DNA of 64,000 bases from Patescibacteria group bacterium (GTDB taxonomy: Bacteria > Patescibacteriota > Patescibacteriia > UBA2196): positions 8,933-72,932 of the forward strand of contig JAQTPI010000005.1 in NCBI GenBank assembly GCA_028748975.1, read 5' to 3'. The translations under genes and the position numbers were made by a program. The notes below the pieces were generated by a model. It saw only the letters and a program-made list of their open reading frames with translations, did not search any database and had not been told where the DNA came from. Below, piece by piece: positions 7,607-52,830 of the stretch (position 1 is the first letter of the stretch; the number at the start of each line of letters is the position of its first letter).

Positions 7607-9625
7607 ATTGCGGAAATTATACCAGCGGTAAGATTACCGCGAAATCTGAATTCTTTTAGTTATTTGGTGCCGGCGGAAATGGCTGGTGTTCTTAAGGTTG
7701 GCATGATTGTAGAAGTTGATTTTAGAGGGAGAAAAGTTGACGGACTAATAATAAAAATCAGAAAACAGAAATCAGAAAACAGAAATCAGAAAACAGAAAT
7801 CAGGGAGAAAAATAATTTTAAATTAAAGCCGATTAAGAAAATTGTTTTCCCCACCCCACTCGTTACTTTGGCGCAGATTGATTTGATAAGAAAAATTGCC
7901 AAATATTATGGCGTGTCGGAAGGGGTGGTGTGCCGGTCGTTTTTACCGGCGCTTTCTAAGCGCCTCCTACGAATGTACGAATCCTACGAATATACGAATA
8001 GAACAACTAAAACGAAAAAAGTTAAAATAGTGAACTCACATCTTTTCTGGTGGCAGAACTTAGACGAACGAAATACGGAATATAAAAAAAATATTAATAA
8101 AACCAAAGGGCAGATTTTGATTCTGACGCCGCAGATTGATTTTATTGAGCAATTAATAAAAGATTTAAAATTGGATGAAAAAAAAGTGATTAGAATTCAT
8201 AACGGCATTAAACCCAAAGAGTTTTTTGAGAACTGGTTGAAAATTTTATCGGGCGAGCCAAAAATTATCATTGGCACCAAAATGGCCTTGACACTTTCCT
8301 TCTCTAATTTGAAAACTATTATTATTGACGAGGAGCAGGATTGGAATCATAAACAATCAGATATTAATCCGCGCTATGACGCGCGGATGGTGGCGGAATG
8401 GCTGGCGAGTGCGCACGGAGCGGAGTTGGTTTTGGCGAGCGCGGCGCCGAGGGTGGAGACATATTACGAATTATTGAAATCAGAAAACAGAAAACAGAAA
8501 TCAGGGGATTCTACGAGATCCCTCGGCTCCCCCGAGTACTCGGGGTCGCTCGGGATAAACTTAGTGAATTTACAAGACGAAAAGACCAAAGGCAATTATT
8601 CCCTACTCTCGGATTCACTCAAAGAAAAAATTGAAGAAATATTAAAAACAAATAAAAAAATATTTTTACTGCATAACCGCAAAGGTACCTCGGGTTTTGT
8701 TTCTTGCGCAGACTGCGGTCATGTTTTTTTATGCCCGGAGTGTCAAATTTCTTTGAATTATTTTCAGACGCAAGGAAGATTAAAATGCGGCCATTGCGCG
8801 CATCAAGAAGAAGTTCCGCCGCTTTGTCCGAAATGCAGCGGACCGAAGATTACTTTTAAAGCCAAGGGCGTGGAAGATCTGGCGCTGGAATTAAAAAAGA
8901 TTTTTCCAGAGATAAATATTTTAGCGGCTTTTAAAAATGAAGGTAAAAAAACAGATTTCAGCAAAGCGCAAATTATCGCGGGCACAGAATTCGCCCTAAG
9001 TAAGATTAATTGGGAGGAAATTGGGTTGGCTGCTATTGTTAATTTTGACCAATTGGTAAACCGGCCGGATTTGGGAGCGCAAAAAGGCGCCTATGATTTA
9101 TTAAAATATATTCAGGGTAGATTGCAGGGCGAACTTATTATTCAGGCGCATAATTTGGATAATATAATTTTGAAAAGCATAAAAGAAAATAGGCCGGAAA
9201 TTTTTTATGAAAATGAACTGGAAAACCGCAAAGATCTTAACTATCCCCCGTTTTGCCGTCTGATTAAAATTATTTTTCAAGATAAATCCAAGGCCCGTGC
9301 TTATTATTTAAGCGACCAGTTGGCGCGGGAGATAAAAAAATTACACACTTGTCATTCCGAGCGAGAGCGAGGAATCCCTTATATTTCCCATACAAGAAAG
9401 ACGAAGGGATCCTTCACTTCTCCGCCTGCTGGCGGATTCGTTCAGGATGACAACACAACCGATTGGCAAGTGAATGGTCCGATACCCGCTGTGCCGGAAA
9501 AAATCCGCGGTAATTTTTTCTATCATATTATTGTTAAACTACCGCTGGCGGCGGATTTAAATAAATTATTTAAAATTATTCCGCCGGATTTTGTGGTTGA
9601 CACAGACCCAGAAAAGTTGACGTAA
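7604..9625 (+). CDS. priA: primosomal protein N' (PriA), probably helicase-inactive
   Basis: N-terminal 3'BD, LTPQ motif, Cys-rich zinc region CADCGHVFLCPECQ...CGHCAH...CPKCSG; Walker A (GxGKT) absent, DEEH replaced by DEEQ; several in-frame repeat insertions. Confidence 0.8.
   Translation: MIAEIIPAVRLPRNLNSFSYLVPAEMAGVLKVGMIVEVDFRGRKVDGLIIKIRKQKSENRNQKTEIREKNNFKLKPIKKIVFPTPLVTLAQIDLIRKIAKYYGVSEGVVCRSFLPALSKRLLRMYESYEYTNRTTKTKKVKIVNSHLFWWQNLDERNTEYKKNINKTKGQILILTPQIDFIEQLIKDLKLDEKKVIRIHNGIKPKEFFENWLKILSGEPKIIIGTKMALTLSFSNLKTIIIDEEQDWNHKQSDINPRYDARMVAEWLASAHGAELVLASAAPRVETYYELLKSENRKQKSGDSTRSLGSPEYSGSLGINLVNLQDEKTKGNYSLLSDSLKEKIEEILKTNKKIFLLHNRKGTSGFVSCADCGHVFLCPECQISLNYFQTQGRLKCGHCAHQEEVPPLCPKCSGPKITFKAKGVEDLALELKKIFPEINILAAFKNEGKKTDFSKAQIIAGTEFALSKINWEEIGLAAIVNFDQLVNRPDLGAQKGAYDLLKYIQGRLQGELIIQAHNLDNIILKSIKENRPEIFYENELENRKDLNYPPFCRLIKIIFQDKSKARAYYLSDQLAREIKKLHTCHSERERGIPYISHTRKTKGSFTSPPAGGFVQDDNTTDWQVNGPIPAVPEKIRGNFFYHIIVKLPLAADLNKLFKIIPPDFVVDTDPEKLT
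7751..7802. repeat. in-frame heptamer microsatellite (CAGAAAA/CAGAAAT)n
   Basis: aaaatcagaaaacagaaatcagaaaacagaaatcagaaaacagaaatcagg gives KIRKQKSENRNQKTEIR; second short array 8471-8500. Confidence 0.7.
8515..8570. mobile_element. MITE module (gagatccctcg...cgggataaac) in-frame in priA
   Basis: gagatccctcggctcccccgagtactcggggtcgctcgggataaac encodes RSLGSPEYSGSLGIN. Confidence 0.6.
9350..9452. mobile_element. MITE-like element (family A) in-frame in priA
   Basis: tgtcattccgagcgagagcgaggaatcc...tccgcctgctggcggattcgttcaggatgaca encodes HTCHSERERGIPYISHTRKTKGSFTSPPAGGFVQDDNT. Confidence 0.65.
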
Positions 9626-10944: not shown

Positions 10945-10989
10945 ATTCCCGCCTGCGCCTGCCTAGACGGCAAGACTGGCGGGAATGAC
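10945..10989. mobile_element. short palindromic element (gattcccgcctgcg...ggcgggaatgaca)
   Basis: same module found in-frame at 29124-29201. Confidence 0.5.
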
Positions 10990-10998
10990 ATAATCAAT

Positions 10999-11319
10999 TT
11001 ATCTGCCACGGCTTTGTTTGTAACAATCAAAACATTTCACGGTGCTTGGGTCTTTCGGATTAAAAGGAAGTTCAGTGACAGCGACGCCGCACATGCTGCA
11101 GGTCCAGTTGCCCTGAATTTTGGGTTTGGGGCCGCGGTCATTGCCGAAACCGCCGCGGTTACCATCTCTTTGCGAACGATTTTTTTTGTAGCAATCGGGG
11201 CAATAAACGGTGCTGCCCGGACGCGGATCAAATTTCAATTGGGTGATAGTGCCACCGCAATCCGCGCAGGTCCAATTACCTTGAACCATGGGACGATCAA
11301 AATCACTTTGATAAGCCAT
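10999..11319 (-). CDS. tandem CxxC-x17-CxxC zinc-ribbon protein
   Basis: two repeats QGNWTC..C...(17)...C.DCYK. Confidence 0.6.
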   Translation of the reverse strand: MAYQSDFDRPMVQGNWTCADCGGTITQLKFDPRPGSTVYCPDCYKKNRSQRDGNRGGFGNDRGPKPKIQGNWTCSMCGVAVTELPFNPKDPSTVKCFDCYKQSRGR

Positions 11320-11723: not shown

Positions 11724-11787
11724 AAAAATTCATTTTATCATGTTAACATTTTAACATATTAACATAAATTAATTTATTATACATCTT

Positions 11788-11859
11788 AGCCGACTGTCGG
11801 ATTTGAACCGACAACCTATAGTTTACAAAACTATTGCTCTACCGTTGAGCTAAGTCGGC
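11788..11859 (-). tRNA. tRNA-Thr (anticodon TGT)
   Basis: acceptor gccgact/agtcggc, anticodon stem atagt/actat loop ttTGTaa, T-loop ttcaaat. Confidence 0.75.
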
Positions 11860-16968: not shown

Positions 16969-16997
16969 ATACTTGACAGGATTTTTTTGGCATACTA
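16969..16997 (+). promoter_or_regulatory. consensus sigma70 promoter (TTGACA-17-TATAAT)
   Basis: cttgacaggatttttttggcatactataatg; followed by about 50-nt leader with SD gaggagg before ATG 17047. Confidence 0.6.
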
Positions 16998-32824: not shown

Positions 32825-33901
32825 ATGCCTATTTTTTGGTCAAAATTTAAGAAACCGATTCTGGCTTTGGCGCCGATGGCCGGGTACACAGACTCGGCTT
32901 TTCGCATTTTATGTTTGGAAAACGGCGCGGATGTGGTTTACACAGAAATGATTTCCGCCGAAGGACTGGCGCGGCAAAACAAGAAAACATTAAAGATGTT
33001 GGAATTTTTACCGGGCGAGAAAAATGTGATTGTGCAGTTGTTTGGAACAAATCCGGAGGCTTTTGGGAAAGCAACGGAGATTATAGGTAAAAGATCCCAT
33101 CGGTCCGCCGTCAGCGGACCTCGGGATGACATCAACCCCATCGTGGGGATTGATGTCAACTTCGGCTGTCCAGCCAAAAAGGTTTTTCATACCGGCGCTG
33201 GGGCGGCACTCATGAATAATAAAAAAATGGCGCGAGAGATTGTGGAGGCGGTTTTAAAAAATACTAAGCTGCCGGTGTCCATTAAAATTCGCAGTCAAGT
33301 GAAAAACACCACGGCAGAAGAATTTATAGAATATCTGAAAGATCTGCCAATCGCCATGGTGATGGTTCATGGCCGGACACTGGCGCAGGGTTTTTCTGGC
33401 GAGATTAATTATGAAGCGATAAAAAACATTAAAAAACTTTTACCAAAAGTGATTGTTCTTGGTAATGGCGGAATCAATTCAGTGGAAGACGCGAGAATAA
33501 TGTTGGAAAAAACCGGTTGTGATGGGGTGGGTATTGCTAGAGGCGCGTTAGGCCAGCCGTGGATATTTGGAGATATAAAAAAATATTACAACCACCCTGG
33601 TCCGATACTACATCGGACCACCCCTCCTTTAAAAGGAGGGGATGCCACCGTCGCTATCCTCCCCTTTCGAAGGGGAGGTGCTCCGACCGCAGTCGGAGCG
33701 GAGGGGTTGAAGATCTGGCCGGAAATAAAATCTACCATGCTTGCTCATGCCAAGCTTTTTCTCAAACAAAATGAAAATTTAATTCCTCTGCGCAAACACT
33801 TAGTTCATTATGTCAAAGGTCTGCCGAACGCTTCGGAATTGCGGCAGAAATTGATTCAAGTGGAAACATTGGCGGAGCTTGAGAAAATTTTAAAGAAATA
33901 A
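32825..33901 (+). CDS. dusB: tRNA-dihydrouridine synthase
   Basis: LAPMAGYTD...FRILC TIM-barrel Dus signature; two in-frame element insertions. Confidence 0.85.
   Translation: MPIFWSKFKKPILALAPMAGYTDSAFRILCLENGADVVYTEMISAEGLARQNKKTLKMLEFLPGEKNVIVQLFGTNPEAFGKATEIIGKRSHRSAVSGPRDDINPIVGIDVNFGCPAKKVFHTGAGAALMNNKKMAREIVEAVLKNTKLPVSIKIRSQVKNTTAEEFIEYLKDLPIAMVMVHGRTLAQGFSGEINYEAIKNIKKLLPKVIVLGNGGINSVEDARIMLEKTGCDGVGIARGALGQPWIFGDIKKYYNHPGPILHRTTPPLKGGDATVAILPFRRGGAPTAVGAEGLKIWPEIKSTMLAHAKLFLKQNENLIPLRKHLVHYVKGLPNASELRQKLIQVETLAELEKILKK
33094..33131. mobile_element. short palindromic module in-frame in dusB
   Basis: atcccatcggtccgccgtcagcggacctcgggatgaca. Confidence 0.5.
33621..33705. mobile_element. 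paired-hairpin element (family B) in-frame in dusB
   Basis: cccctcctttaaaaggagggg...cctcccctttcgaaggggagg... encodes TTPPLKGGDATVAILPFRRGGAPTAVGAEG. Confidence 0.6.
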
Positions 33902-34377: not shown

Positions 34378-35310
34378 CTACGGCTGTAAAATATCTTCAG
34401 TCCGGCCGTTGATGGAAATTATGATGCTACTGACGGTGGAAAATTGTTTTAGAGTTTCGGAAATTTGCGCGCGGATGGCCGTGACGCGGCAAGAACCACC
34501 CACCCCACTCTCCAAATCAGAACTGAAATCTACTTTGGCCACGCCGTCTGTAATTTCTAATTTTTGAATTTTCACGCCAGCAGGAATGGTGGTGGTAAAA
34601 CCTAAATCTTTTTCGGCCTGGCTCGGGCCTTTCAAAAGTTCTTCCAAAGCCACGCGGGCGATGCCTTCAGTTTTATCCACTTCCCTTTCCACCGCTAAAA
34701 ATTTGCTGCAATCATAATCAGTGGACGCGTCCAGTTCGGAATTTTGAAAAAATACTTTCACTTTTATTTTTCCGTTTGATTTTAGGTATTGTATCGGGAT
34801 GTTTAAACTGTCATTGTTTTGCGGCAAACCCGACGGATTATCGCGCGCTAAAATTAGGCGGCCGCTGCCATCGGCGGAAGCGATATATTTTAATTCTGCC
34901 TGAAAAGGCACAAAATTTTCCGTCATCCAATCACTCTGGGCTTCCGCGATGCCGGTACCCAAAACATTGCCTTGCGCGTCAATTAATTTAACCGGAAACG
35001 AGGCTTCAAAAAACCAAAAGCCGCGCGCCTGACCTTTAATAATAATTGGATTCCCCACCAAGGTGAGCGGCCGCGGTTCGTCCACTCGAATGGTATTTTC
35101 TTTTTCCAATAAATTTCCAATATCTTCAGTAAAAGTTTTTCCATTAGCATTACAGCGCCTGGGATAACTTTCCATAATTGGATTGCCGGCGGCCGCGCAG
35201 TCGGCAAAATTTGTTATTTCAGTTTTCTCCGGTCGGTAGAATTGATGGTAAGCAAAATAACCCGCGACAATAATCAATAAAATGACGATAAAAGTAAGGA
35301 GTTTTTTCAT
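34378..35310 (-). CDS. Gmad2/GerMN-domain lipoprotein-like protein
   Basis: N-terminal TM, sporulation/germination GerMN-like C-terminal half. Confidence 0.6.
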   Translation of the reverse strand: MKKLLTFIVILLIIVAGYFAYHQFYRPEKTEITNFADCAAAGNPIMESYPRRCNANGKTFTEDIGNLLEKENTIRVDEPRPLTLVGNPIIIKGQARGFWFFEASFPVKLIDAQGNVLGTGIAEAQSDWMTENFVPFQAELKYIASADGSGRLILARDNPSGLPQNNDSLNIPIQYLKSNGKIKVKVFFQNSELDASTDYDCSKFLAVEREVDKTEGIARVALEELLKGPSQAEKDLGFTTTIPAGVKIQKLEITDGVAKVDFSSDLESGVGGSCRVTAIRAQISETLKQFSTVSSIIISINGRTEDILQP

Positions 35311-35387
35311 ATTTTTTGAATATTTAATTAAATTAAGTGTAGCAAAAATACAATAAAAAATCCACCTCTTGGCTCTAGGTATTTAAT

Positions 35388-35416
35388 TGAACTTGACAAA
35401 GATTCAATCTTATACT
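35388..35416 (+). promoter_or_regulatory. sigma70-like promoter (TTGACA-17-TATACT) with long leader
   Basis: cttgacaaagattcaatcttatactatact; leader contains 10-codon uORF (MAYVTLIKRMN) and two copies of AACCCAAAA..AGGAGGAA module. Confidence 0.55.
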
Positions 35417-35604
35417 ATACTTAATAATTGTACGTTTCCAAATTAAAGCAAGGAGGTAAAAATAGCCATAAAATGGCGTATGTAACATTAATTAAGAGAA
35501 TGAATTAAACTTATTAACCCAAAATACAAGGAGGAATAAAAACAAACAAAAGTGGGGTAATTTTAACTGAATTTACTAACCCAAAACAGGAAAGCGAGGA
35601 ATTA

Positions 35605-36675
35605 ATGGAAACACCAAAGGGCGTGGATGTAGCAATCAGTTTTGACACGACGGGTTCAATGTATCCGTGTCTGACGCAGGTGCGTAGGCACGTGGAACAG
35701 ACCGCTCGCAGATTATTTCGGGATATTTCCGGTTTGCGACTGGCCATTATCGCCCATGGTGACTACTGCGACGCGAGTCGAACATATGTCACCAAGAAAA
35801 TGGATTTTTCAACCAATCTGGAAGCCATCTGCCGGTTTGTCAGAACAGTCGGGGCGACTAATGGTGGCGACTCGCCCGAGTGCTACGAATTGGTACTCCG
35901 AGAAGCGCGTGGTTTGAGTTGGCAGGCCGGAAACGAGAAGGTGCTCGTGATGATCGGCGATGACGTGCCGCACGAAAAAAACTATCCTTTAAATAAGGAT
36001 CGGATTGACTGGCGCAATGAGCTTGAACTGCTCCTGGAAGCAGGAATCCATGTTTATGGCGTTCACGCCATGCCGGGAATCCGACAGCATTCAAGACATT
36101 TTTACAAAGAGATTGCCAGTAAAACCAAAGGTTATTATCTGACCCTGGACCAATTCTCCGCCATCGTCGACATCATTTTCGCCATCTGCTACAAGCAAGC
36201 CGGCAACGGAAGCCTGAAAAATTTCCAGCAGGAAATTCGAGGGGAAGGGCGCATGAGCCGTAATATGGCCTTCGTTTTTCAAATGCTGACCGGCGAGCCG
36301 ATGGAGGTGGTAGCGTCCTACAACGGTCTGGTTCCCGTTCCGGCCGGACGCTTTCAAGTTCTTCGAGTCGATGAAGACCAAGCGATTCGTGATTTCGTCG
36401 AAGATCAAGGGCTGGTTTTTAAAACCGGCCGAGGCTTCTATCAATTCACGAAGTCCGAGATGATTCAGGAGAAAAAAGAAGTCGTCCTGATGGACAAAAA
36501 TACGGGCGATATGTTTTCCGGCGAAGAAGCCCGTCGAATCATCGGCCTTCCTTTCGGCATGAGAGGTAAAATCAAACCGGTGAGTCTGGAGCAGTTCAAT
36601 ATCTTCGTGCAGAGCACTTCCTACAACAGGAAGTTGATTGGCGGAAGTCTGTTTTTGTACGAAGTGACGGATTAA
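35605..36675 (+). CDS. von Willebrand factor A (VWA) domain protein, compositionally foreign
   Basis: MIDAS-type motif VAISFDTTGSM, second metal-site region; gene visibly GC-rich (over 50 percent by eye) against AT-rich flanks. Confidence 0.7.
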   Translation: METPKGVDVAISFDTTGSMYPCLTQVRRHVEQTARRLFRDISGLRLAIIAHGDYCDASRTYVTKKMDFSTNLEAICRFVRTVGATNGGDSPECYELVLREARGLSWQAGNEKVLVMIGDDVPHEKNYPLNKDRIDWRNELELLLEAGIHVYGVHAMPGIRQHSRHFYKEIASKTKGYYLTLDQFSAIVDIIFAICYKQAGNGSLKNFQQEIRGEGRMSRNMAFVFQMLTGEPMEVVASYNGLVPVPAGRFQVLRVDEDQAIRDFVEDQGLVFKTGRGFYQFTKSEMIQEKKEVVLMDKNTGDMFSGEEARRIIGLPFGMRGKIKPVSLEQFNIFVQSTSYNRKLIGGSLFLYEVTD

Positions 36676-36682
36676 TAATACA

Positions 36683-36716
36683 ATGTGTTTAAAGAGCCTG
36701 TATTCAATACGGGCTC
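36683..36716 (+). terminator. rho-independent terminator
   Basis: gagcctgtattcaatacgggctctttttttatt. Confidence 0.7.
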
Positions 36717-36849
36717 TTTTTTTATTATTTATCATTAACTGGACGCTAAGTTTAATAAACTGATAAACAAACAAAAAATCTGTTAAACTCCGGGGGTCCC
36801 GATGTGATATCGGGACGAAATCCACGTTAACCCGCCTGCCTGCGCTATG

Positions 36850-36921
36850 CTCTGGGGGAAGGAATCGAACCTTCACTAACCACGTTAACAGCGTGGCGTT
36901 TTACCATTAAACTACCCCAGA
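36850..36921 (-). tRNA. tRNA-Asn (anticodon GTT)
   Basis: acceptor tctgggg/ccccaga, D stem gttt/aaac, anticodon stem ccacg/cgtgg loop ctGTTaa, T-loop ttcgatt, discriminator G. Confidence 0.75.
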
Positions 36922-36985
36922 GCGCAGAGCATTGCGGGCAGGCAGCGTGGCGTTGTACCACTCAACTACCCCGGAGCTCAACAGA
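36922..36985 (-). pseudogene. tRNA-Asn-like 5' half (degenerate partial copy)
   Basis: minus strand tccgggg ta gttgagtggtacaac g ccacg then non-tRNA sequence; matching 3' fragment with non-canonical T-loop at 36786-36830. Confidence 0.4.
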
Positions 36986-36998
36986 TTAATTTATTATA

Positions 36999-37028
36999 AA
37001 AACCGGCTTAATTGGCCGGTTTTTATAC
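36999..37028. terminator. bidirectional terminator
   Basis: aaaaaccggcttaattggccggttttta. Confidence 0.65.
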
Positions 37029-37146
37029 TTTTATAAATAAGATAAAATCCGGCCTATTTTGGGTCGTTATTATTGTTATTATTATTGTTATTAAATTTTA
37101 TGGTCATAACTATTTAAGTATAGCAAAATTATGTAATAAAGTCAAG

Positions 37147-37623
37147 TTATTTAAAATAATAGGCAATCCAGCGACCAAGATAGAAAGAAACTACCATCAC
37201 GACAAGGGCGATGGAAAGATGTTCGCGAATAACAGGAAAAACCTTTTTCTTTTCACTTTTGGCCAGACGATAACTTTGTAAAATTAAAATTATAGCTCCC
37301 CAGGCAAAAGCAAAATACATGGCAGTATGAACAGGAAAAAGCAAAACACTGACAACAAAGGTACAGGCAAAAATAGCTTTAAATAAAAAAGTAAAAAATG
37401 TCGCTTGCCAAACCTCTTTGTTGGAAAAATTACCTTCTGATTCTTTGGCGACATGCACACCTAAAGCATCGGAACAAGAATCAGCCACAGCGATGGTTAA
37501 AATACCACCAATGAGAACCAGTCTGGAACCAGTGCTGGATTCCAAACCGGTCATGAGGCCGAGAGTGGTAATGGTGGCCGAGGTTAAACCAAAACCCATG
37601 CCAACGCGTAAACTTTTAAGCAT
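37147..37623 (-). CDS. small polytopic membrane protein (possibly VIT1/CCC1-like)
   Basis: 158 aa, 4-5 TMs, G/S/T-rich helices; family assignment tentative. Confidence 0.45.
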   Translation of the reverse strand: MLKSLRVGMGFGLTSATITTLGLMTGLESSTGSRLVLIGGILTIAVADSCSDALGVHVAKESEGNFSNKEVWQATFFTFLFKAIFACTFVVSVLLFPVHTAMYFAFAWGAIILILQSYRLAKSEKKKVFPVIREHLSIALVVMVVSFYLGRWIAYYFK

Positions 37624-47404: not shown

Positions 47405-47509
47405 AAGCTTGAATATAAATAAATTATAGCTAAAATTTCTTAATTTGGCAATTGAAAGGTAATAAGTAATAAGCAACTAGTAATAAGGGGATTGTAAATA
47501 AAAGATAAA

Positions 47510-47540
47510 ACAAAAAACCGCCTTTTTTGGCGGTCTTCTT
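47510..47540 (-). terminator. hairpin terminator (T tract on minus strand)
   Basis: aaaaaaccgccttttttggcggt. Confidence 0.5.
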
Positions 47541-47544
47541 TCTC

Positions 47545-47700
47545 GCCATTTACTGGCGCAGGAATCCAGAGTTTAAAATTAATGTTTTTGAGAAGAGAGA
47601 TTTTGTTTTTTCCCAAGGCGGCGGGCGCCCGAAGGAACCGTGCCGGTGAATGGGAGTTTAATTCTAAACTCGTTTTTTGTTTTCCCGCGCCTGTAAATAA
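47545..47700 (-). ncRNA. candidate small ncRNA, long imperfect hairpin (possibly SRP/4.5S-like); strand uncertain
   Basis: ends pair (ggcgcagg/cgcgcctg; agtttaaaattaa/ttaattctaaact), apical gcgcccgaaggaaccgtgcc resembles SRP domain IV GGAAGGAAGC region; terminator adjacent on minus strand. Confidence 0.3.
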
Positions 47701-47770
47701 TGACAAATAACTGACAACTTATAATATACGACTTATAATTTTCAACTAAAGTATAGCAAAAACAATAAAT

Positions 47771-47810
47771 AGTAACAAGTAATAAGTAATAAGTAACTAG
47801 TAATAAAGAG
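47771..47810. repeat. heptamer tandem repeat (TAAYAAG)n
   Basis: agtaacaagtaataagtaataagtaactagtaataaag. Confidence 0.6.
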
Positions 47811-48921
47811 AAAGTTTGATTAATTTTGCTATAGCAAAATTAATCAAACTTAGTAATTGGGAAAGAAAATAAAAAACGGCCAAGAGTGAGGGACTCCCGA
47901 GCCGCGTGAAACTTTTAAGAAAAATTGCCTTACCGTAAAAAATTTACCTCACCGGAAATGACAATTGTTTCAGTCGTTCCCGGGAGAATTGTTGTCTCTG
48001 TATTGTTTTTTTCTTCAAAAAAATGTATGAGGCGAGTGGACGGGTTAAAATCTATTTGCCCGCTCACCACTCTCCACTCCCTACTTCCAACAGTGACTGT
48101 TCTCAACATGTTTTCCTCCAATCATTCTGAAATTGTAATTGCGGTTCTGATCTTTCCCTCACCTGACTTCCCTTTTCTTTCTAAATCGCGAGTGAACGCG
48201 ATTTTATACGCGAGTTTACGCCAAAAGAAAAAAGGATGCCGGGTGAAGGGCGACGGTGTGACGTCGCTTTGAAAAAAAATGGAAAGGGTGTTTGATATCC
48301 CAAAAGAGATAAATGGCACCAAACACCCTTTCCCCTGTCCCAGCAAATTGTTTTGACGTGCCCAAGACCGGGCCGCTACTGACACTTTGCTGGAGAAGTG
48401 GATTGAAGTCGGGAGAAAATTTACTCCTCACTCGCCTTGATGTCCTTTCGAACAGTCATAGACTAATTGCTTCAACCCCCTCATTTATAATCTTTTGAAA
48501 AATTATAAATGAGGAGGAAGAAAATTTTGGTTTATTTAAATTATTAATTTTATCAGATTATTAGATTATTAACTTGCGCCCGCGGAACTGGAGATTAGCT
48601 TTTGATGCTGCTAGAGAAAGAGCATCAAGAACCATGAAGATTATTGAAACCCCTCGCTTTTAAGCCGTCGTCTGATCTCGCGGTTTAGAGCGGAAGAGAC
48701 CTCTGGGCGATTAGCTTGGAATATGGAATATTGAAGCTAAGGCCACGAGAGCAAACGGCTTAGTAGCAAGGGGGAGCATGGTTTGTTCTGTCTGCCTGTA
48801 TTTTGCCGAAGCAAAATTATGGCAGACCAGCAACTTCGCACGAGGGAAAAATTCAGGTTGCCCCAAATTTTTCCTCTTTGAAACTGCTGGCTAATCTCCA
48901 TGTCGGCGGGGAGATTTTTAT

Positions 48922-49041
48922 CCTCCCCTTTCGAAGGGGAGGTGGGTTGAGCGGAGCGAAACCCGGAGGGGTTGTGTGATTATTTTTACCACAACCACCC
49001 CGCCTCGTTTCACTCGGCACCCCTCCTTCGAAAGGAGGGGA
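48922..49041. mobile_element. paired-hairpin element (family B)
   Basis: cctcccctttcgaaggggagg ... cccctccttcgaaaggagggg. Confidence 0.6.
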
Positions 49042-49104
49042 TATAAAAATCAAAATTTATATTTTTAACGAGCATTTTTCCAATCTCTGGCTTCTACTAG
49101 AGGG

Positions 49105-49192
49105 TGTCATCCTGATCCGCCGGCTGGCGGAGAAGGATCTCGTAGAATTTTTACGAGATTCCTCCCCCGAGTACTCGGGGTTCGGAATGACA
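49105..49192. mobile_element. MITE-like element (family A)
   Basis: gtgtcatcctgatccgccggctggcggagaaggatctcgtag...gattcctcccccgagtactcggggttcggaatgaca. Confidence 0.65.
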
Positions 49193-49267
49193 TTCGTTTG
49201 TAAAACTCATAGATTGAGGGCCGAAACGATTAATGAAATATCATTTCGGCCTGATGTGGTGATTTTA

Positions 49268-49441
49268 CTACGAGGGTAATTCATCCAATGTTTCGTGGTC
49301 CTTCATCTTGCGTAGGTCTTCACGAACCTTGCGCAAGTCTTGGCGGGTCTTTTTGTTTTCGTATGTTACATGACTTACGACTATTATGGAGCACCCACCT
49401 ATGCCCACAAGTAAAAGAACAAGCGGCACTAACATATGCAT
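49268..49441 (-). CDS. small single-TM peptide (57 aa; ORF track 49268..49507)
   Basis: MHMLVPLVLLLVGIGGCSIIVVSHVTYENKKTRQDLRKVREDLRKMKDHETLDELPS; leader ttaaaagatgggggtatgcatATG nearly identical to leader of peptide gene at 52170. Confidence 0.4.
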   Translation of the reverse strand: MHMLVPLVLLLVGIGGCSIIVVSHVTYENKKTRQDLRKVREDLRKMKDHETLDELPS

Positions 49442-49641
49442 ACCCCCATCTTTTAAATGAACTTTTTCCGACCGAGAATCGGCCGGGGAAATTTGGATGG
49501 CCACCAAAAGGAGTATTAACCTTCTTCGGTTATCCTGACCCGGAGGACAGGAGCCTTTGCCTATCCGCCCATCGCGGACATTAGAGGTGTTTCTCCTCTA
49601 ACGGCTGGTGGCCGTTAATTTTTATTTTTCTAAATTATCAA

Positions 49642-49707
49642 TTGAGAAGGCGGGATTCGAACCCGCGACCGCCTGTTCCCCGAGCAGGTGTGCTGACTTA
49701 CTCCCCA
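49642..49707 (-). other. non-canonical tRNA-like element (acceptor plus T-arm, truncated body)
   Basis: minus strand tggggag...gcggg ttcgaat cccgc cttctca a; acceptor pairs with 2 G-U; only 34 nt between acceptor and T-arm, no canonical anticodon arm. Confidence 0.35.
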
Positions 49708-50255
49708 ATCTTTTATTTTTATTTTTCCAAACCATCAATATAAATGTCTGGATTTCCGCCTAAGGTGGAAATGACAAAATTGATAACTTGGAAAAATTGG
49801 GGAAAGCTGATTCTGAGAGGCGTTATGACGCCTAGAATCTCTTTTCCCCAATGCCATTTCTAGGGCTGGCGATACCCTTATTACCCGCATACACGATGGT
49901 ATGCAACTTTGAAGCTCGGGTCGATTGGACCCTGTGAGCCACCCGCGGCAACCGCGGCCAGCTCTTTGCCCGCTTTTTTGTCTGACCTCTGACACGCGAG
50001 CTAATCAGAGGCGGATGTAATGAGAGACGGGAGAAATGGGCGGCTGATCATCGCGGTGTTCATGAAACCCGCGCGGATTTACCGGGCACTTCGCCATCAT
50101 CAACCATTTAAGAACCCAATCCTCAATCACGTCTCTCTCGAAAATGCACCGATGTTGGCAATCACCATCTTTTAGGGACGGGTCAGCCCGTTTGTCTCCA
50201 GAACAATGCCGGAGGACGGGGCTCGTAAAACGAGCGCGAACATTGGCACATTTTG

Positions 50256-50328
50256 TCGGAATGGCAGGATTCGAACCTGCGGCCCCATGCTCCCAAAGCA
50301 TGTGCGCTACCAGCTGCGCTACACTCCG
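50256..50328 (-). tRNA. tRNA-Pro (anticodon TGG)
   Basis: acceptor cggagtg/cattccg (one G-U), D-arm tagcgcagctggtagcgca, anticodon stem catgc/gcatg loop ttTGGga, T-loop ttcgaat. Confidence 0.75.
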
Positions 50329-50342
50329 AATAAATATTTTGT

Positions 50343-50468
50343 TGTCATCCCGAGCGAACAACGACCTCTCTCCATCTCTCCCCTTATTAAGGGGAGAGGG
50401 ACGAACTGTTCCCCTCTCCTTTACAAGGAGAGGGTCGGGGGTGAGGTCGTCACTCAATCGGAATGACA
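50343..50468. mobile_element. composite element (family A ends with family B-like paired hairpins)
   Basis: gtcatcccgagcgaacaacgacc...ctccccttattaaggggagag...cccctctcctttacaaggagaggg...gtcgtcactcaatcggaatgaca. Confidence 0.6.
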
Positions 50469-52056
50469 AAATAATTTATTTTTTTAAACTTCTCTAAGCC
50501 ATCAAATTTTATAAAATTACCTTGATAGCTTGGAAAAATGGCGGAGATATAGAATCGCCGCCGAGAATGACTGTTGTCGTCAACGCATTGGACCTTAAAC
50601 CTTTCACTGTCGGGTGTCCACGGATGTCGCGAATCTCTCAAACTTGAAAAAAAATCGGGTGGCGGTCGCGAGGTTGACCTGGAACCCGCACAAAGGCAGG
50701 CTCGCCACAAAGGGCGCGATCAGCGGAAAGTAGTCGGCATGTCTTAAGCCGCGCTACTATCACCGAATGCGCGCCGCCACCCGGTTCGTGCGAAAGTCCC
50801 CCGCAATTCCCTAAGAACGCCTCGGCGGGTTAATTCCCGAAGGGACTTTCCAGCACGTGCCAGGGTAAAGGACGATGAACCGCCCTGGTTCGGTTTCGGT
50901 GTTCGGCCGGCAGTTGTTGTGCCGAAGCGGCAGGCTGGGAGAAATCGGCGAAATTCCGACTCGTCCGCTACACCCGGCGCTTTTCTCGTTCGGGCCCCCG
51001 GTTTGACGTCCGCGGGGGCAGGTTCAGCCGCACTCACGATGGCGGCTTTTCGATGTGGCCGGCCGAAACACCAGTCACGGACCCGGGAGCTTTCACCCGG
51101 TTCGCTTTTTTCCACACCGGATTGGGCCGGAGGGACGCGGCGATAGGGCGAGGTTGCGGCGAACCGCTGGGGAACCATCCCATAAACCTCTGGTTTTCTC
51201 TCCACATCCTATCGTTAGTGCGTCCGCCCCCAGCCATCCGGTCCGGACAGGCATGTGCAGCGTGGCTCGCGCGGTTTGGGGCTTCAACGCAAGACGCTCC
51301 GCCCCAAATCGCAATCCGTCCAACTGCCCCACGACTGGCGCAGGGACATGCCCGCTGCTTGGCCGCCGTTGTGGCCATCGTACCCGTCCGAATCCGCCCA
51401 CGGCTTTGGCCTAGCTGAAAAGCTTTGGCCCCGATGCCGCGCGCGGAATTTTCACAGGATCTTCAATGTTGGATTCACCAAGTAACGTAGCTGCAAGCGC
51501 CCAGACGCCTGTGCAATCCCGCCAGCTTGGCGATGAGTTTGTTGGCCATGGTATGGCCTCCGTCGACAGAAATTCAAAACTAGGTTTTTCGGCCAACCAC
51601 CCACGGTATTTGGTTGCCGAATACTCTTTTGGCCTTACGCTAATTAATTTTTGCTGCCTCCGTAGAGATAGACAAAATAATTAATTAACGTTAGCGTTTA
51701 CATCCGTGGCGTAGCTGCAATCGGCCCCCCGACTGTGCAATCTCGCCAACAGATTTGTTGCGTGTCTATTGGTTTCGTATGCCCTCCTTTTCGCTTAGGC
51801 GACCCTGGCCCCACGCTGGGTTAGGTCGAGTTAAAGTAAGGATTGGCAAATTTTTTTATTTCCTCCTCTATTTAATAATTTGTTTTCGCCTTAATGGGCG
51901 AGATGTTAAGTATTAAGAAATATTAATACCCAACATGCCGACCACAGTTAATAAAAAACTCAAAACTCAATTAACAAAACTTAAGACTAATTAAGAAATT
52001 GAAATAAGGATCCTTGCCGACCAACTGTGATGGTATATCAGTCGGCAAGGATGTTT

Positions 52057-52170
52057 TTACTTTAGAAGCACCCGAGAAATTTGATCAAGTTGATAGATGA
52101 TGGTAATTAGGGCCACCACAACTAAGCCCATAAAAAACCCTATCATACGTTTCTCTGAGTTTGTCAGCAT
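52057..52170 (-). CDS. small hydrophobic peptide (37 aa), type I toxin-like
   Basis: MLTNSEKRMIGFFMGLVVVALITIIYQLDQISRVLLK; conserved upstream caaggaaaa...ttaaaagcgggggtatgca; hairpin terminator ccttgccgac..gtcggcaagg downstream. Confidence 0.4.
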   Translation of the reverse strand: MLTNSEKRMIGFFMGLVVVALITIIYQLDQISRVLLK

Positions 52171-52302
52171 TGCATACCCCCGCTTTTAAGTGAAAGATAT
52201 TTTTCCTTGTTTCAATTCCCCACTAATTGTGAAATTGAAATAAGGAACCTTGCCGGCTGAAACACTGTGATGTGTTCCGGCTGGCAAGGATTTTGAAGGT
52301 TA

Positions 52303-52467
52303 TTACAAAAGATGCAGCACCTTCATATTGAGTATTGTGATGGCCACGATTATAATCCCAATCAGCACGCCGTTTTTCATTCCTTGGGAGTAACCGTTGG
52401 TGTAACCGTCGTCATATCCCCTGCCGTAACCAATGGAAAGACCTATCCCTAAACCCATAATGACTGA
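52303..52467 (-). CDS. small Gly/Tyr-rich single-TM peptide (55 aa; ORF track 52303..52509)
   Basis: SD aaaaaaggagacaatt then MSVIMGLGIGLSIGYGRGYDDGYTNGYSQGMKNGVLIGIIIVAITILNMKVLHLL; same upstream gggaattgaaacaaggaaaa element and hairpin terminator as neighbour. Confidence 0.45.
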   Translation of the reverse strand, partial: SVIMGLGIGLSIGYGRGYDDGYTNGYSQGMKNGVLIGIIIVAITILNMKVLHLL

Positions 52468-52756
52468 CATAATTGTCTCCTTTTTTATTATGAATTTTCC
52501 TTGTTTCAATTCCCCAATATTTAATTTTAAAGGTCAGCGATTTTTTTCCGTAATACTTAAGTATAGCACAACCACAGAACTTGTCAAGTGGATAACTTAA
52601 ATAAATTCTAAAAAGGCTGTTTTTTGGCTAATTTAAGCCAAAACAAATACCCGAATTAGTACGAATTTTACCCGAATTTATCCGAATATTACGGAATTTT
52701 TAATTTTAACAAAATATTAAAAAATATCAAATTTGGGGATAAGTGGGGATGAAAAA

Positions 52757-52830
52757 GGCGGTCCGATCCGCCAGTTGGCGGATCGGACCGCCTCAAAATA
52801 TATCTTTATATCCTTATATCTTTATTTTTA
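52757..52830. mobile_element. MITE-like element
   Basis: ggtccgatccgccagttggcggatcggaccgcc...tatatccttatatctttat. Confidence 0.5.

Follow-up and report, generated by a model that had tools for sequence, protein, structure and literature searches.

Proteins with a MIDAS-type VWA domain (PF00092, PF25106) are the closest described relatives of the protein studied here, which shares with them, foremost with integrin beta I-like domains, the fold and the D-x-T-x-S...T...D signature. In contrast to these domains, it is cytoplasmic and stand-alone and carries extra invariant acidic, Cys and His residues. Its C-terminal domain is found in none of the described VWA architectures. Further likeness is given by Ro60/Rsr (TROVE and vWA) and Ku70/80 (vWA and beta-barrel), which act inside the cell and link a VWA domain to a module that binds nucleic acids. 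Of these, Rsr acts together with RtcB and with Y RNAs, which resemble tRNA. Neither a TROVE nor a Ku domain was found by Pfam in our protein, and a fold search with its C-terminal domain returned no significant match.

On the level of the locus, tRNA-linked islands are similar in that the VWA islet lies 3' of a tRNA gene, is of atypical composition, is absent in relatives and occupies a slot of variable cargo. Unlike these islands, it spans 1.46 kb with a single gene, comes without integrase or bounding repeat, and differs in orientation between genomes. Phage morons and the tRNA and RNA-repair regions of jumbo phages (PMC7824862) resemble it with regard to the gene's own promoter and terminator and its large-phage homologues in or beside tRNA arrays. 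Here, the differences are that in the window the VWA gene is accompanied by neither a prophage nor an endonuclease and that a connection with tRNA function is suggested by association alone. Finally, inheritance of the T4 tRNA region is driven by the homing endonuclease SegB (PMC2330249). When a split tRNA-Asn next to our islet is compared to such tRNA replacement, the endonuclease is absent from its insert, while a GIY-YIG ORF is present in the tRNA-Gln of a relative (locus L174).

We studied a stretch of 64,000 nt (contig JAQTPI010000005.1 of a Patescibacteria group bacterium; in the following, the window), whose source is a metagenome-assembled genome. It holds a VWA ORF at 35605-36675 (+) that encodes 356 aa and is the single ORF within its islet; neighbours are the GerMN protein, a VIT1-like protein, FtsX and Dus. 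Respective features are listed in Table 1. Taken as a whole, the locus probably represents an acquired, self-contained one-gene VWA-CTD cassette in a variable slot, with the splitting of the adjacent tRNA-Asn as a separate event.

Table 1. Features of the VWA islet and of the adjacent tRNA-Asn locus (window coordinates).
Feature	Position	Strand	Remark
Putative foreign islet, ~1.46 kb	35311..36767	.	VWA promoter, leader, gene and terminator
Sigma-70-type promoter TTGACA-17-TATACT	35393..35421	+	-10 context resembles the host's recurrent TTTTGCTAYACTTAA motif
5' leader, ~177 nt, A-rich, unstructured, three Shine-Dalgarno-like sites	35428..35604	+	
uORF, 11 codons, non-significant	35474-35509	+	within VWA leader
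VWA domain, complete MIDAS and helical linker, residues 1-232	35605..36300	+	
C-terminal beta-rich domain, residues 233-356	36301..36675	+	AF2, Foldseek, Pfam, PHROG
Intrinsic terminator of VWA gene, 13-bp stem followed by T run	36691..36727	+	
3' half of native type B tRNA-Asn, G34 to 3' end	36788..36831	-	identical to L175 tRNA-Asn except T arm
112-nt insert in native anticodon loop	36832..36943	-	leader 36922-36943, type A tRNA-Asn, trailer 36832-36848
tRNA-Asn(GTT), intact, type A	36849-36921	-	sequence identical to L083 tRNA-Asn
5' half of native type B tRNA-Asn, positions 1-33	36944..36975	-	32/32 identical to L175 tRNA-Asn
Terminator hairpin between Asn leader ORF and tRNA-Asn	36995..37027	-	proposed attenuator terminator
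Leader-peptide ORF MTIKFNNNNNNNNNDPK (then stop), 9 consecutive Asn codons	37054..37107	-	conserved in four related loci
Promoter TTGACT-17-TATACT, TG-extended	37117..37145	-	for Asn leader and tRNA-Asn

With regard to base composition, the VWA ORF shows a GC content of 50.0% compared to 40.7% for the window. Its GC3 of 57.7% is the highest among the 54 ORFs of at least 100 aa (mean 40.8, sd 7.9), and its codon usage is the most deviant among the 33 window genes with at least 250 codons; for instance, CTG is used at 52% vs. 14%, ATC at 59% vs. 24% and CGA at 31% vs. 7%. The original prediction had singled out this gene as GC-rich relative to its surroundings, which is borne out since GC, GC3 and codon usage all differ from the window. 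The codon deviation correlates with VWA homologues of GC-richer CPR and phage loci (r = 0.77-0.81), while respective values for other deviant window genes range from -0.32 to 0.28.

The window and its relatives share the synteny FtsE-FtsX-tRNA-Gln-tRNA-Asn...GerMN-Dus. A comparison of this site for the same gene at the same place gave the outcome expected for an island, i.e., the VWA gene is absent in L083/L084, L089 and L175. The slot between tRNA-Asn and GerMN holds other cargo there, namely a DEAD-box helicase in L175 and L089 and a methyltransferase-like gene in L083. That is, the anticipated empty site with GerMN directly beside tRNA-Asn was not seen, and the event is a replacement within a variable slot and not a simple insertion. 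Given that the relatives lack the VWA gene and carry other cargo in its slot, horizontal acquisition of the islet is supported. Its edges are set by the GerMN start at 35310 and, on the tRNA side, by the match to the L175/L089 tRNA-Asn 3' flank, which restarts at ~36768. Since the relatives used for synteny are distant (72-83% identity for FtsX, 64-75% for GerMN), we infer when the gene was gained or lost and which of the two took place. The donor would be a GC-richer CPR bacterium or a CPR phage, and codon usage would have been only partly adjusted to the new host; no donor was found in the window.

The same data bear on whether the VWA gene is instead resident, i.e., ancestral at this site and lost or replaced in the relatives, with its GC content resulting from amino-acid constraint or high expression. 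In every host, the GC content of VWA-family genes is drawn toward ~50%, that is, above the flanks in AT-rich and below them in GC-rich genomes. Because of this tendency in all hosts, part of the GC excess is to be attributed to amino-acid constraint and not to foreignness. A resident gene would also be in accordance with the -10 context of the VWA promoter, which is like the host's own promoter motif, and with the fairly large distance of the compared relatives. However, the outliers are GC3 and synonymous codon choice, both free of amino-acid constraint, and the codon deviation tracks the GC-richer homologues and not the other deviant genes of the window. Furthermore, the slot holds three different cargoes in three lineages, and the closest homologues are found in unrelated contexts. 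We thus consider a resident gene improbable.

The tRNA-Asn locus beside the islet had been described as carrying degenerate half-copies of the tRNA, read as a signature of repeated integration. Both the tRNA and the flanking pieces are present, but the pieces are complementary 5' and 3' halves of one gene, which does not fit repeated integration. Rather, a native tRNA-Asn is, as far as the sequence tells, split at position 33/34 of the anticodon loop by a 112-nt unit with a second, intact tRNA-Asn allele. Leader and trailer of this insert are mutually complementary, and the nested cloverleaf reaches an MFE of -112 kcal/mol (z = -9.7). The flank upstream of the outer 5' half is homologous to L175 and L089. 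Within the outer 3' half, a non-canonical hairpin (8-bp stem, 5-nt loop) takes the place of the T arm; a search for a viral origin of this hairpin yielded no exact match in IMG/VR. We also considered whether the outer pieces stem from a phage or from an L001-type tRNA-Asn, which was rejected because anticodon stem and 5' half match the lineage's own L175 allele. The nested structure is seen in one assembly, and Logan contigs with identical FtsX end before the nested tRNA. Besides tRNA, leader and trailer, the insert of the window holds nothing else; in particular, no endonuclease gene was found in it.

In the relative L174, a GIY-YIG ORF is located inside a similarly split tRNA-Gln. A group I intron was considered for this tRNA-Gln and rejected, given no Rfam match.

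Next, we consider a classical integrase-mediated island, where a VWA element integrated site-specifically into tRNA-Asn and the half-copies are the attL/attR scars. The position of the VWA gene 3' of tRNA-Asn, both in the window and in the Moranbacteria locus L001, is what such an island predicts. In L001, the tRNA 3' end recurs as a 26-nt repeat (85% identical, 1822 nt away) beyond the far side of the VWA gene, so that tRNA-Asn and repeat enclose the gene. The VWA gene also adjoins tRNA-Arg in L003 and L004, and a 33-nt direct repeat (94% identical) flanks a 1206-bp cassette ~100 nt upstream of the tRNA-Arg in L003. The repeats of L001 and L003 also speak for mobility of the gene within CPR, in line with an acquired cassette. 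The window itself argues against this explanation. The outer tRNA halves flank the intact tRNA-Asn and not the VWA gene; a look at the islet and its surroundings in the window showed no integrase or recombinase gene, and no att-like or bounding repeat was found around the gene. The sole repeat that spans it (18 nt, 35333/37114) was rejected as an att repeat, since it represents a promoter motif of the host that recurs in 8 copies vs. 0.7 expected. In addition, the orientation of the VWA gene relative to the tRNA is reversed between window and L001, and no flank homology was found between VWA cassettes of different loci. An integrase-mediated island therefore has little chance of being the correct explanation. 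As to other vehicles, no prophage was found at the locus, where the genes flanking the islet are housekeeping genes syntenic in relatives, and PLSDB gave no match that would indicate plasmid carriage. Concerning the central claim of a horizontally acquired single-gene island, both composition and absence in relatives thus speak for it, while the details on integration scars do not hold.

The islet's gene comes with its own transcription signals. Its promoter is the strongest promoter match within 33-39 kb (11/12 positions), and an own TTGACA promoter is found in all close CPR homologues of the gene. A textbook promoter is therefore present as predicted, but it is not the only one in the window, given a second perfect TTGACA-17-TATAMT at 16973 and 11 sites with at most one mismatch (0.8 expected). 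The strong terminator claimed at the gene's end is present as well, with its 13-bp stem and T run at 36691-36719. The duplicated modules noted for the leader also proved real: they belong to a tandem duplication of ~62 nt (35503-35564 and 35565-35627) with an alignment score of 18.5 vs. -2.4 +/- 3.4 in shuffles, of which the first copy lies wholly and the second partly in the leader.

A functional uORF within this leader, in contrast, was rejected. The ORF does exist, but an ORF that starts with ATG and has 10 or more codons turns up in 60% of the shuffled leaders, i.e., it is at chance level; its closest Shine-Dalgarno-like sequence is 17 nt upstream, which is poor spacing, and it is not conserved. 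In general, the leaders of relatives show neither homology to nor conserved sequence with the VWA leader of the window. A riboswitch or otherwise structured leader was ruled out likewise, based on the unconserved leaders, an Rfam scan of 35250-37200 without matches except tRNA, and a leader fold without extra structure compared to shuffles (z = +1.5).

On the opposite strand, the region 36995-37145 upstream of tRNA-Asn shows the features of a predicted leader-peptide transcription attenuator, i.e., a run of Asn codons combined with alternative antiterminator and terminator structures. The in-frame Asn run is kept at 8-10 codons in four relatives. The hairpin that follows is read as a terminator on either strand and is conserved in relatives, and a GGCCGGA just past the leader's stop codon is complementary to its 5' arm. 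Such an attenuator would appear to put the tRNA gene under the control of its own charging level.

At the protein level, the predicted MIDAS motif was found to be complete: residues D14-T-T16-G-S18, T85 and D119 are present; among 40 homologues, T85 is conserved to at least 90%, and the other four (D14, T16, S18, D119) do not vary. The family shows the extra invariant residues C22, D53, D56, D89, E92 and H123. The VWA fold is supported by the AF2 model (pLDDT 91) and by Foldseek matches to integrin beta I-like and alpha I domains, with integrin beta3 on top (E = 6e-10). With Pfam, the window protein reaches 17 bits for PF25106 (VWA_4; cut-off 27), while the homologues P0106 (42.1 bits) and P0053 (31.8 bits) are above the PF00092 threshold. 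No signal peptide or transmembrane segment was found; the protein is soluble and cytoplasmic.

The C-terminal domain, predicted as uncharacterised and about 170 aa long, is real and without known family or fold, but comprises ~120 aa (AF2 pLDDT 91). It shows the conserved motifs GRFQ, GRGFY and QSTSxNR. Foldseek gave nothing significant vs. PDB (best E = 0.07, TM up to 0.26) and no significant structural match in BFVD; neither a Pfam family nor a PDB sequence match was found. It matches PHROG 26613, which is annotated as function unknown. No Pfam domains were found in the C-terminal extensions of family members of 490-760 aa, i.e., no recognisable effector domain.

Overall, 2601 full-length homologues with 50-76% identity were collected, and the family is found in more than 580 species of the GTDB genome set. 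It covers CPR bacteria, Myxococcota, cyanobacteria, Clostridia, large phages, amphioxus, corals and a fungus, with Myxococcota and filamentous cyanobacteria enriched and the eukaryotic genes located on chromosome-scale scaffolds. It is a large, highly conserved, patchily distributed family of stand-alone proteins, and the members closest to ours come from other CPR lineages. Among them, the L001 protein is nearest (76% identity), and its gene has wholly different neighbours. No partner gene conserved across phyla was found in 163 loci; the stable synteny with ligA in cyanobacteria is specific for that lineage. No characterised homologue or solved structure was found for the family.

The phage homologues include those of a 595-kb phage, Virus Rctr197k and Rhizobium phage RHph_I1_18, and in large phages the gene is often placed inside an array of tRNA genes. 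In 13/163 loci, the VWA gene has a tRNA at a distance of no more than 500 nt, all 13 being CPR loci or phage-like tRNA arrays. Array-linked VWA genes belong to at least 4 subclades with at most 57% mutual identity, from genomes of 30-62% GC. Near some phage homologues in or beside tRNA arrays, we find HNH or GIY-YIG-type nucleases. In one phage, the homologue is ~3 kb from an RNA ligase 2 gene. Within L097, the single locus of such context, the VWA gene is located between a metallophosphoesterase and the nucleotidyltransferase RlaP, which is described as an RNA-ligase-associated repair enzyme (PMC7824862). The association with tRNA or RNA repair is absent in more than 100 loci of Myxococcota, cyanobacteria, Clostridia and Planctomycetota, and it could simply mirror the accessory region where phages hold their tRNAs.

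That a mobile gene which stands alone is so strongly conserved implies a cellular target that does not vary. We tentatively propose, and hold as possible but doubtful, that the MIDAS would bind an acidic residue or phosphate group of this invariant partner in a Mg2+-dependent manner, with the C-terminal domain adding a second binding surface. The tRNA arrays of several phage lineages, the RlaP/metallophosphoesterase locus and the RNA ligase 2 neighbour make a partner connected with tRNA, translation or RNA damage more probable than a lineage-specific defence complex. Going further, the VWA-CTD family would be a universal factor for tRNA or for translation and RNA damage that travels with tRNA genes, within the tRNA arrays of large phages and next to single tRNA genes in CPR bacteria. 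Instead of integrating, the gene would have been brought in by co-conversion when the tRNA-Asn locus underwent homing-type repair. The tRNA genes of this lineage would then be mobile units, as for the nested tRNA-Asn of the window and the GIY-YIG-bearing tRNA-Gln of its relative. We rate this extended scenario as unlikely.

Finally, a role as anti-phage defence or conflict effector, i.e., a stand-alone VWA protein like MoxR-vWA ternary or Ter-type components that was acquired as an islet, is very unlikely, even though the gene is horizontally mobile and phage-borne and the enrichment in Myxococcota and filamentous cyanobacteria resembles the conflict systems described for multicellular bacteria (PMC8195603): the hint at phage defence in the original prediction found no backing, with 0 PADLOC families at E up to 0.1, neither a MoxR ATPase, an effector domain nor another conserved neighbour in 163 loci, longer family members without recognisable effector domain, stable synteny of the cyanobacterial gene with ligA, and 50-76% identity over bacteria, phages and eukaryotes, which is unlike fast-evolving defence proteins.

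As a gene transfer, the cassette is ordinary, i.e., a small islet beside a tRNA gene with a single gene as cargo. More interesting than the transfer is this cargo, which belongs to a large family without a studied member. Its repeated placement in phage tRNA arrays is a testable lead, and homologues are available in tractable organisms, i.e., Myxococcus, Clostridium, filamentous cyanobacteria and a Rhizobium phage. At this locus, the split tRNA gene and the predicted Asn attenuator may matter more than the VWA gene.

With regard to composition, the VWA gene is GC-richer than its surroundings, as originally predicted (50.0% vs. 40.7% for the window), and, with 57.7%, has the highest GC3 among the 54 ORFs of 100 aa or more (mean 40.8, sd 7.9). 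In synonymous codon choice, no other of the window's 33 genes of 250 codons or longer deviates as strongly. Other deviant window genes deviate differently (r = -0.32 to 0.28), whereas the codon usage of VWA homologues in GC-richer loci of phages and candidate-phyla (CPR) bacteria is similar (r = 0.77-0.81; homologue GC3 0.67-0.93). Judged from its codons, the gene looks like a foreign gene incompletely adjusted to its host. Part of the total GC excess is accounted for by amino-acid constraint, since over 82 loci the VWA gene exceeds its flanks in GC in AT-rich hosts and falls below them in GC-rich hosts.

We used GerMN and FtsX, encoded on either side of the VWA gene, to find homologues and thereby syntenic relatives. 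Locus L175 (FtsX 76%, GerMN N-terminus about 75% identical to the window) reads FtsE - FtsX - tRNA-Gln(CTG) - tRNA-Asn - DEAD-box helicase - GerMN, L089 reads tRNA-Asn - DEAD-box helicase - GerMN - Dus, and both L083 and L084 read FtsE - FtsX - tRNA-Gln - tRNA-Asn - 175-aa methyltransferase-like gene - GerMN. All four lack the VWA gene in the slot between tRNA-Asn and GerMN, as was expected of relatives, while the anticipated direct adjacency of GerMN and tRNA-Asn is not observed; other cargo is found there. Gene order demonstrates a slot that is variable between lineages, and the different cargo per lineage implies replacement rather than insertion into an empty site. Homology to L175 and L089 extends through the tRNA-Asn 3' flank and ends at about 36768, which delimits a foreign segment of about 35311-36767. 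No integrase is found in the window, and the islet differs from integrase-mediated islands in having neither an integrase nor a bracketing tRNA repeat. The outlier status in codon usage and GC and the absence from the syntenic site support the predicted horizontally acquired single-gene island, i.e., a foreign, self-contained and intact cassette. As its donor we infer a GC-richer CPR bacterium or CPR phage.

Features around the VWA gene and Asn leader regions of related loci (window coordinates unless a locus is named)
Feature	Position	Strand	Remark
Dus	32825-33901	+
94-aa ORF		-	between Dus and GerMN/Gmad2 gene
GerMN/Gmad2 protein	34378-35310	-
VWA promoter	35393-35421		TTGACA-17-TATACT
VWA ORF	35605-36675	+
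VWA terminator	36691-36719
Outer 3' tRNA half	36831-36788	-	identical to L175 tRNA-Asn except T arm
Trailer of inner tRNA, 17 nt		-	between inner tRNA and 3' half
Intact inner tRNA-Asn	36921-36849	-	identical to L083 allele
Leader of inner tRNA, 22 nt		-	between 5' half and inner tRNA
Outer 5' tRNA half	36975-36944	-	32/32 identical to L175 tRNA-Asn
Terminator hairpin	37027-36995	-	tRNA-Asn gene next
Asn leader ORF, MTIKFNNNNNNNNNDPK and stop	37107-37054	-	9 consecutive Asn codons
Promoter of Asn leader	37145-37117	-	ORF starts almost immediately after
Asn leader region, window	36990-37145	-
Asn leader region, L175	8905-9075
Asn leader region, L083	7135-7300
Asn leader region, L089	60-245
VIT1-like membrane protein, 158 aa	37147-37623	-	between tRNA-Gln and tRNA-Asn promoter
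tRNA-Gln		-	between VIT1-like gene and FtsX
FtsX and FtsE		-	beyond tRNA-Gln

The textbook promoter attributed to the VWA gene exists but is not unique to it: the consensus recurs without mismatch at 16973, and 11 window sites with at most one mismatch are observed vs. 0.8 expected. The predicted terminator is present, and the duplicated modules of the leader (about 177 nt) are genuine: some 62 nt, ribosome-binding region included, are repeated in tandem. The proposed uORF (11 codons) is at chance level, since 60% of shuffled leaders have one too. The leader is unstructured (folding z = +1.5), has no Rfam match and shares no sequence with the homologues' leaders.

Every close CPR homologue has its own TTGACA promoter. 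The closest one (76% identity; Candidatus Moranbacteria, L001) neighbours DnaG, RpoD and a PMT_2 glycosyltransferase. Two CPR homologues are bounded by direct repeats, namely the tRNA-Asn 3' end in L001 (26 nt, 85% identity, 1822 nt apart) and a 33-nt repeat in L003 (94% identical, 1206 nt apart), where the cassette lies about 100 nt upstream of tRNA-Arg. Flank homology is absent when cassettes of different loci are compared. L001 also holds three copies (9337-9427, 10954-11068, 11773-11839; 72-93% identical) of a roughly 100-nt repeat around the cassette, two of which flank the VWA gene; it has no Rfam match.

The tRNA half-copies next to the gene, previously read as a signature of repeated integration, are the 5' and 3' halves of one gene and show no attL/attR pattern. 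The region 36975-36788 folds as a cloverleaf within the anticodon loop of a second cloverleaf (-112 kcal/mol vs. -68 for shuffles, z = -9.7), and the flanks on both outer sides are homologous to L175 and L089. Since the outer halves correspond to the L175 allele and the inner tRNA to the L083 allele, a 112-nt unit with a second, predicted functional allele appears to interrupt the native tRNA-Asn between anticodon-loop positions 33 and 34. Compensatory changes in the acceptor and D stems distinguish the alleles. The T arm of the outer 3' half is a perfect 8-bp hairpin without GTTCGA box, and the inner tRNA has its own, mutually complementary leader and trailer. Such leader-trailer complementarity is observed, from differing sequences, in every version of this tRNA-Asn among the relatives. 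The tRNA fragments derive from a separate nested-tRNA event. We rejected them as a bracket of the VWA gene, since they enclose the intact tRNA-Asn instead.

Upstream of tRNA-Asn, GGCCGGAUUUUAU follows the stop of the leader ORF and is complementary to the 5' arm of the terminator hairpin. Across four related loci, which differ in AAT/AAC usage and by a deletion of one codon, the ORF stays in frame and has 8-10 Asn codons. The arrangement looks like a leader-peptide transcription attenuator that would sense Asn-tRNA charging and control the tRNA-Asn gene itself; a brief literature search found no precedent. In L083 and L175, no VIT1-like gene intervenes between tRNA-Gln and the promoter of tRNA-Asn, which are direct neighbours there; by gene order, the window's VIT1-like gene is a second lineage-specific insertion at this tRNA locus.

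In the closest relative by FtsX (L174, JGI Ga0619461_14126415; 83% identity), tRNA-Gln is split after its D arm (1540-2110; 3' fragment aatccaagtcccgcag), resembling the window's split tRNA-Asn. The fragments enclose an ORF for an 87-aa GIY-YIG endonuclease and an intact tRNA-Gln(TTG), whose leader and trailer carry a perfect 13-bp repeat; additional tRNA-like pieces lie there as well. A search for a group I intron in the split gene gave no match. This suggests homing-type mobile units with a replacement tRNA. The GIY-YIG ORF inside the split gene is reminiscent of SegB, a GIY-YIG homing endonuclease of the T4 tRNA cluster that drives the inheritance of that region and of flanking DNA (PMC2330249).

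Elsewhere in the window, about 5 kb (47500-52800) contain almost no credible ORFs, reach 62% GC (50.5-51.5 kb; window 40.7%) and include tRNA-Pro, a 69-nt tRNA-like element weakly matching the tmRNA model ends (49639-49707; E = 3e-6, below gathering score) and an extended hairpin (50339-50472, about 130 nt). At threshold, Rfam yields no family; the stretch may hold unannotated structured RNAs.

The VWA ORF product is 100% identical to the database entry 'MAG: VWA domain-containing protein [Patescibacteria group bacterium]', encoded on a 76-kb contig, and has neither signal peptide nor transmembrane segment. Residues 1-232 form the VWA domain (AF2 pLDDT 91; Foldseek E = 6e-10 to integrin beta I-like domains). 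The predicted MIDAS motif, i.e., the domain's metal site, is confirmed by conservation (D14, T16, S18 and D119 invariant, T85 at least 90%); C22, D53, D56, D89, E92 and H123 are also invariant. By modelled fold and MIDAS residues, the protein is thus assigned to the VWA superfamily. The C-terminal domain is indeed uncharacterised but spans residues 233-356 rather than about 170 aa. It is beta-rich, confidently modelled alone (pLDDT 91) and matches no Pfam family, no PDB sequence and, by Foldseek, nothing significant in PDB (best E = 0.07, TM up to 0.26) or BFVD. Searched as a profile, it was recovered in 2,333 of 1.84 billion representative proteins; among the best 150, it mostly follows a VWA-sized N-terminal region, and some proteins are short and nearly domain-only. 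Longer family members carry no recognisable additional domain.

The VWA family comprises 2,601 homologues with 50-76% identity over their whole length. It is found in over 580 GTDB species, predominantly Myxococcota, filamentous cyanobacteria, Clostridia, Planctomycetota and CPR. No neighbours are conserved across phyla; the cyanobacterial position upstream of ligA (21 loci) is vertical synteny. No plasmid carriage was found. Eukaryotic members (P0094, P0117, P0241; amphioxus, Porites corals, the fungus Jimgerdemannia) share 49-51% identity with the CPR protein, and their C-terminal domain occurs a second time at the N-terminus. Scaffolds of chromosome scale carry P0094 and P0117. These observations point to ancient or recurrent gene transfer between eukaryotes and bacteria or phages.

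Phage homologues occur in Virus Rctr197k (60% identity), a 595-kb uncultured phage and Rhizobium phage RHph_I1_18 (48%; near RNA ligase 2, thymidylate synthase and dihydrofolate reductase), and more remote single-domain relatives in crAss-like phages and mycobacteriophage Myrna. Many metagenomic members reside within co-oriented tRNA arrays with suppressor tRNAs (in one locus also tmRNA); genes next to these members have matches to PHROG families and to HNH or T5orf172 nucleases. In 13/163 loci, all CPR or such arrays, the VWA gene has a tRNA no more than 500 nt away. The array-linked genes fall into at least 4 subclades of at most 57% mutual identity, from genomes of 30-62% GC. We infer that the tRNA-gene linkage is older than the transfer. 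In L097, the VWA gene is flanked by an RlaP nucleotidyltransferase and a metallophosphoesterase. The row on this 168.9-kb phage-like contig (3167-6902) reads CoxE-like VWA protein, RlaP nucleotidyltransferase, homologue with VWA and C-terminal domain, calcineurin-like phosphoesterase, possibly a phage RNA-repair module with two different VWA proteins. RlaP enzymes are described as RNA-ligase partners in phage RNA repair (PMC7824862).

The protein is outside every described VWA system, and no family member has a functional name in the sources examined. The hinted role in phage defence found no backing: PADLOC returns zero matches, and neighbours are not conserved across phyla. NCBIfam likewise gives none, and PHROG matches are restricted to families of unknown function. 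The protein lacks the tested hallmarks of defence systems, as well as those of Ro60/Ku-type proteins. Its MIDAS site would bind an invariant cellular partner, for which a link to tRNA, translation or RNA damage is more likely than one to a defence complex; this reading, drawn by association only, is doubtful. Islets next to tRNA genes with moron-like cargo are known, and the event adds a further case. The gene transfer itself is ordinary, but the cargo comes from a large, unstudied family with unusually high conservation, and two tRNA-related features of the locus were unexpected.
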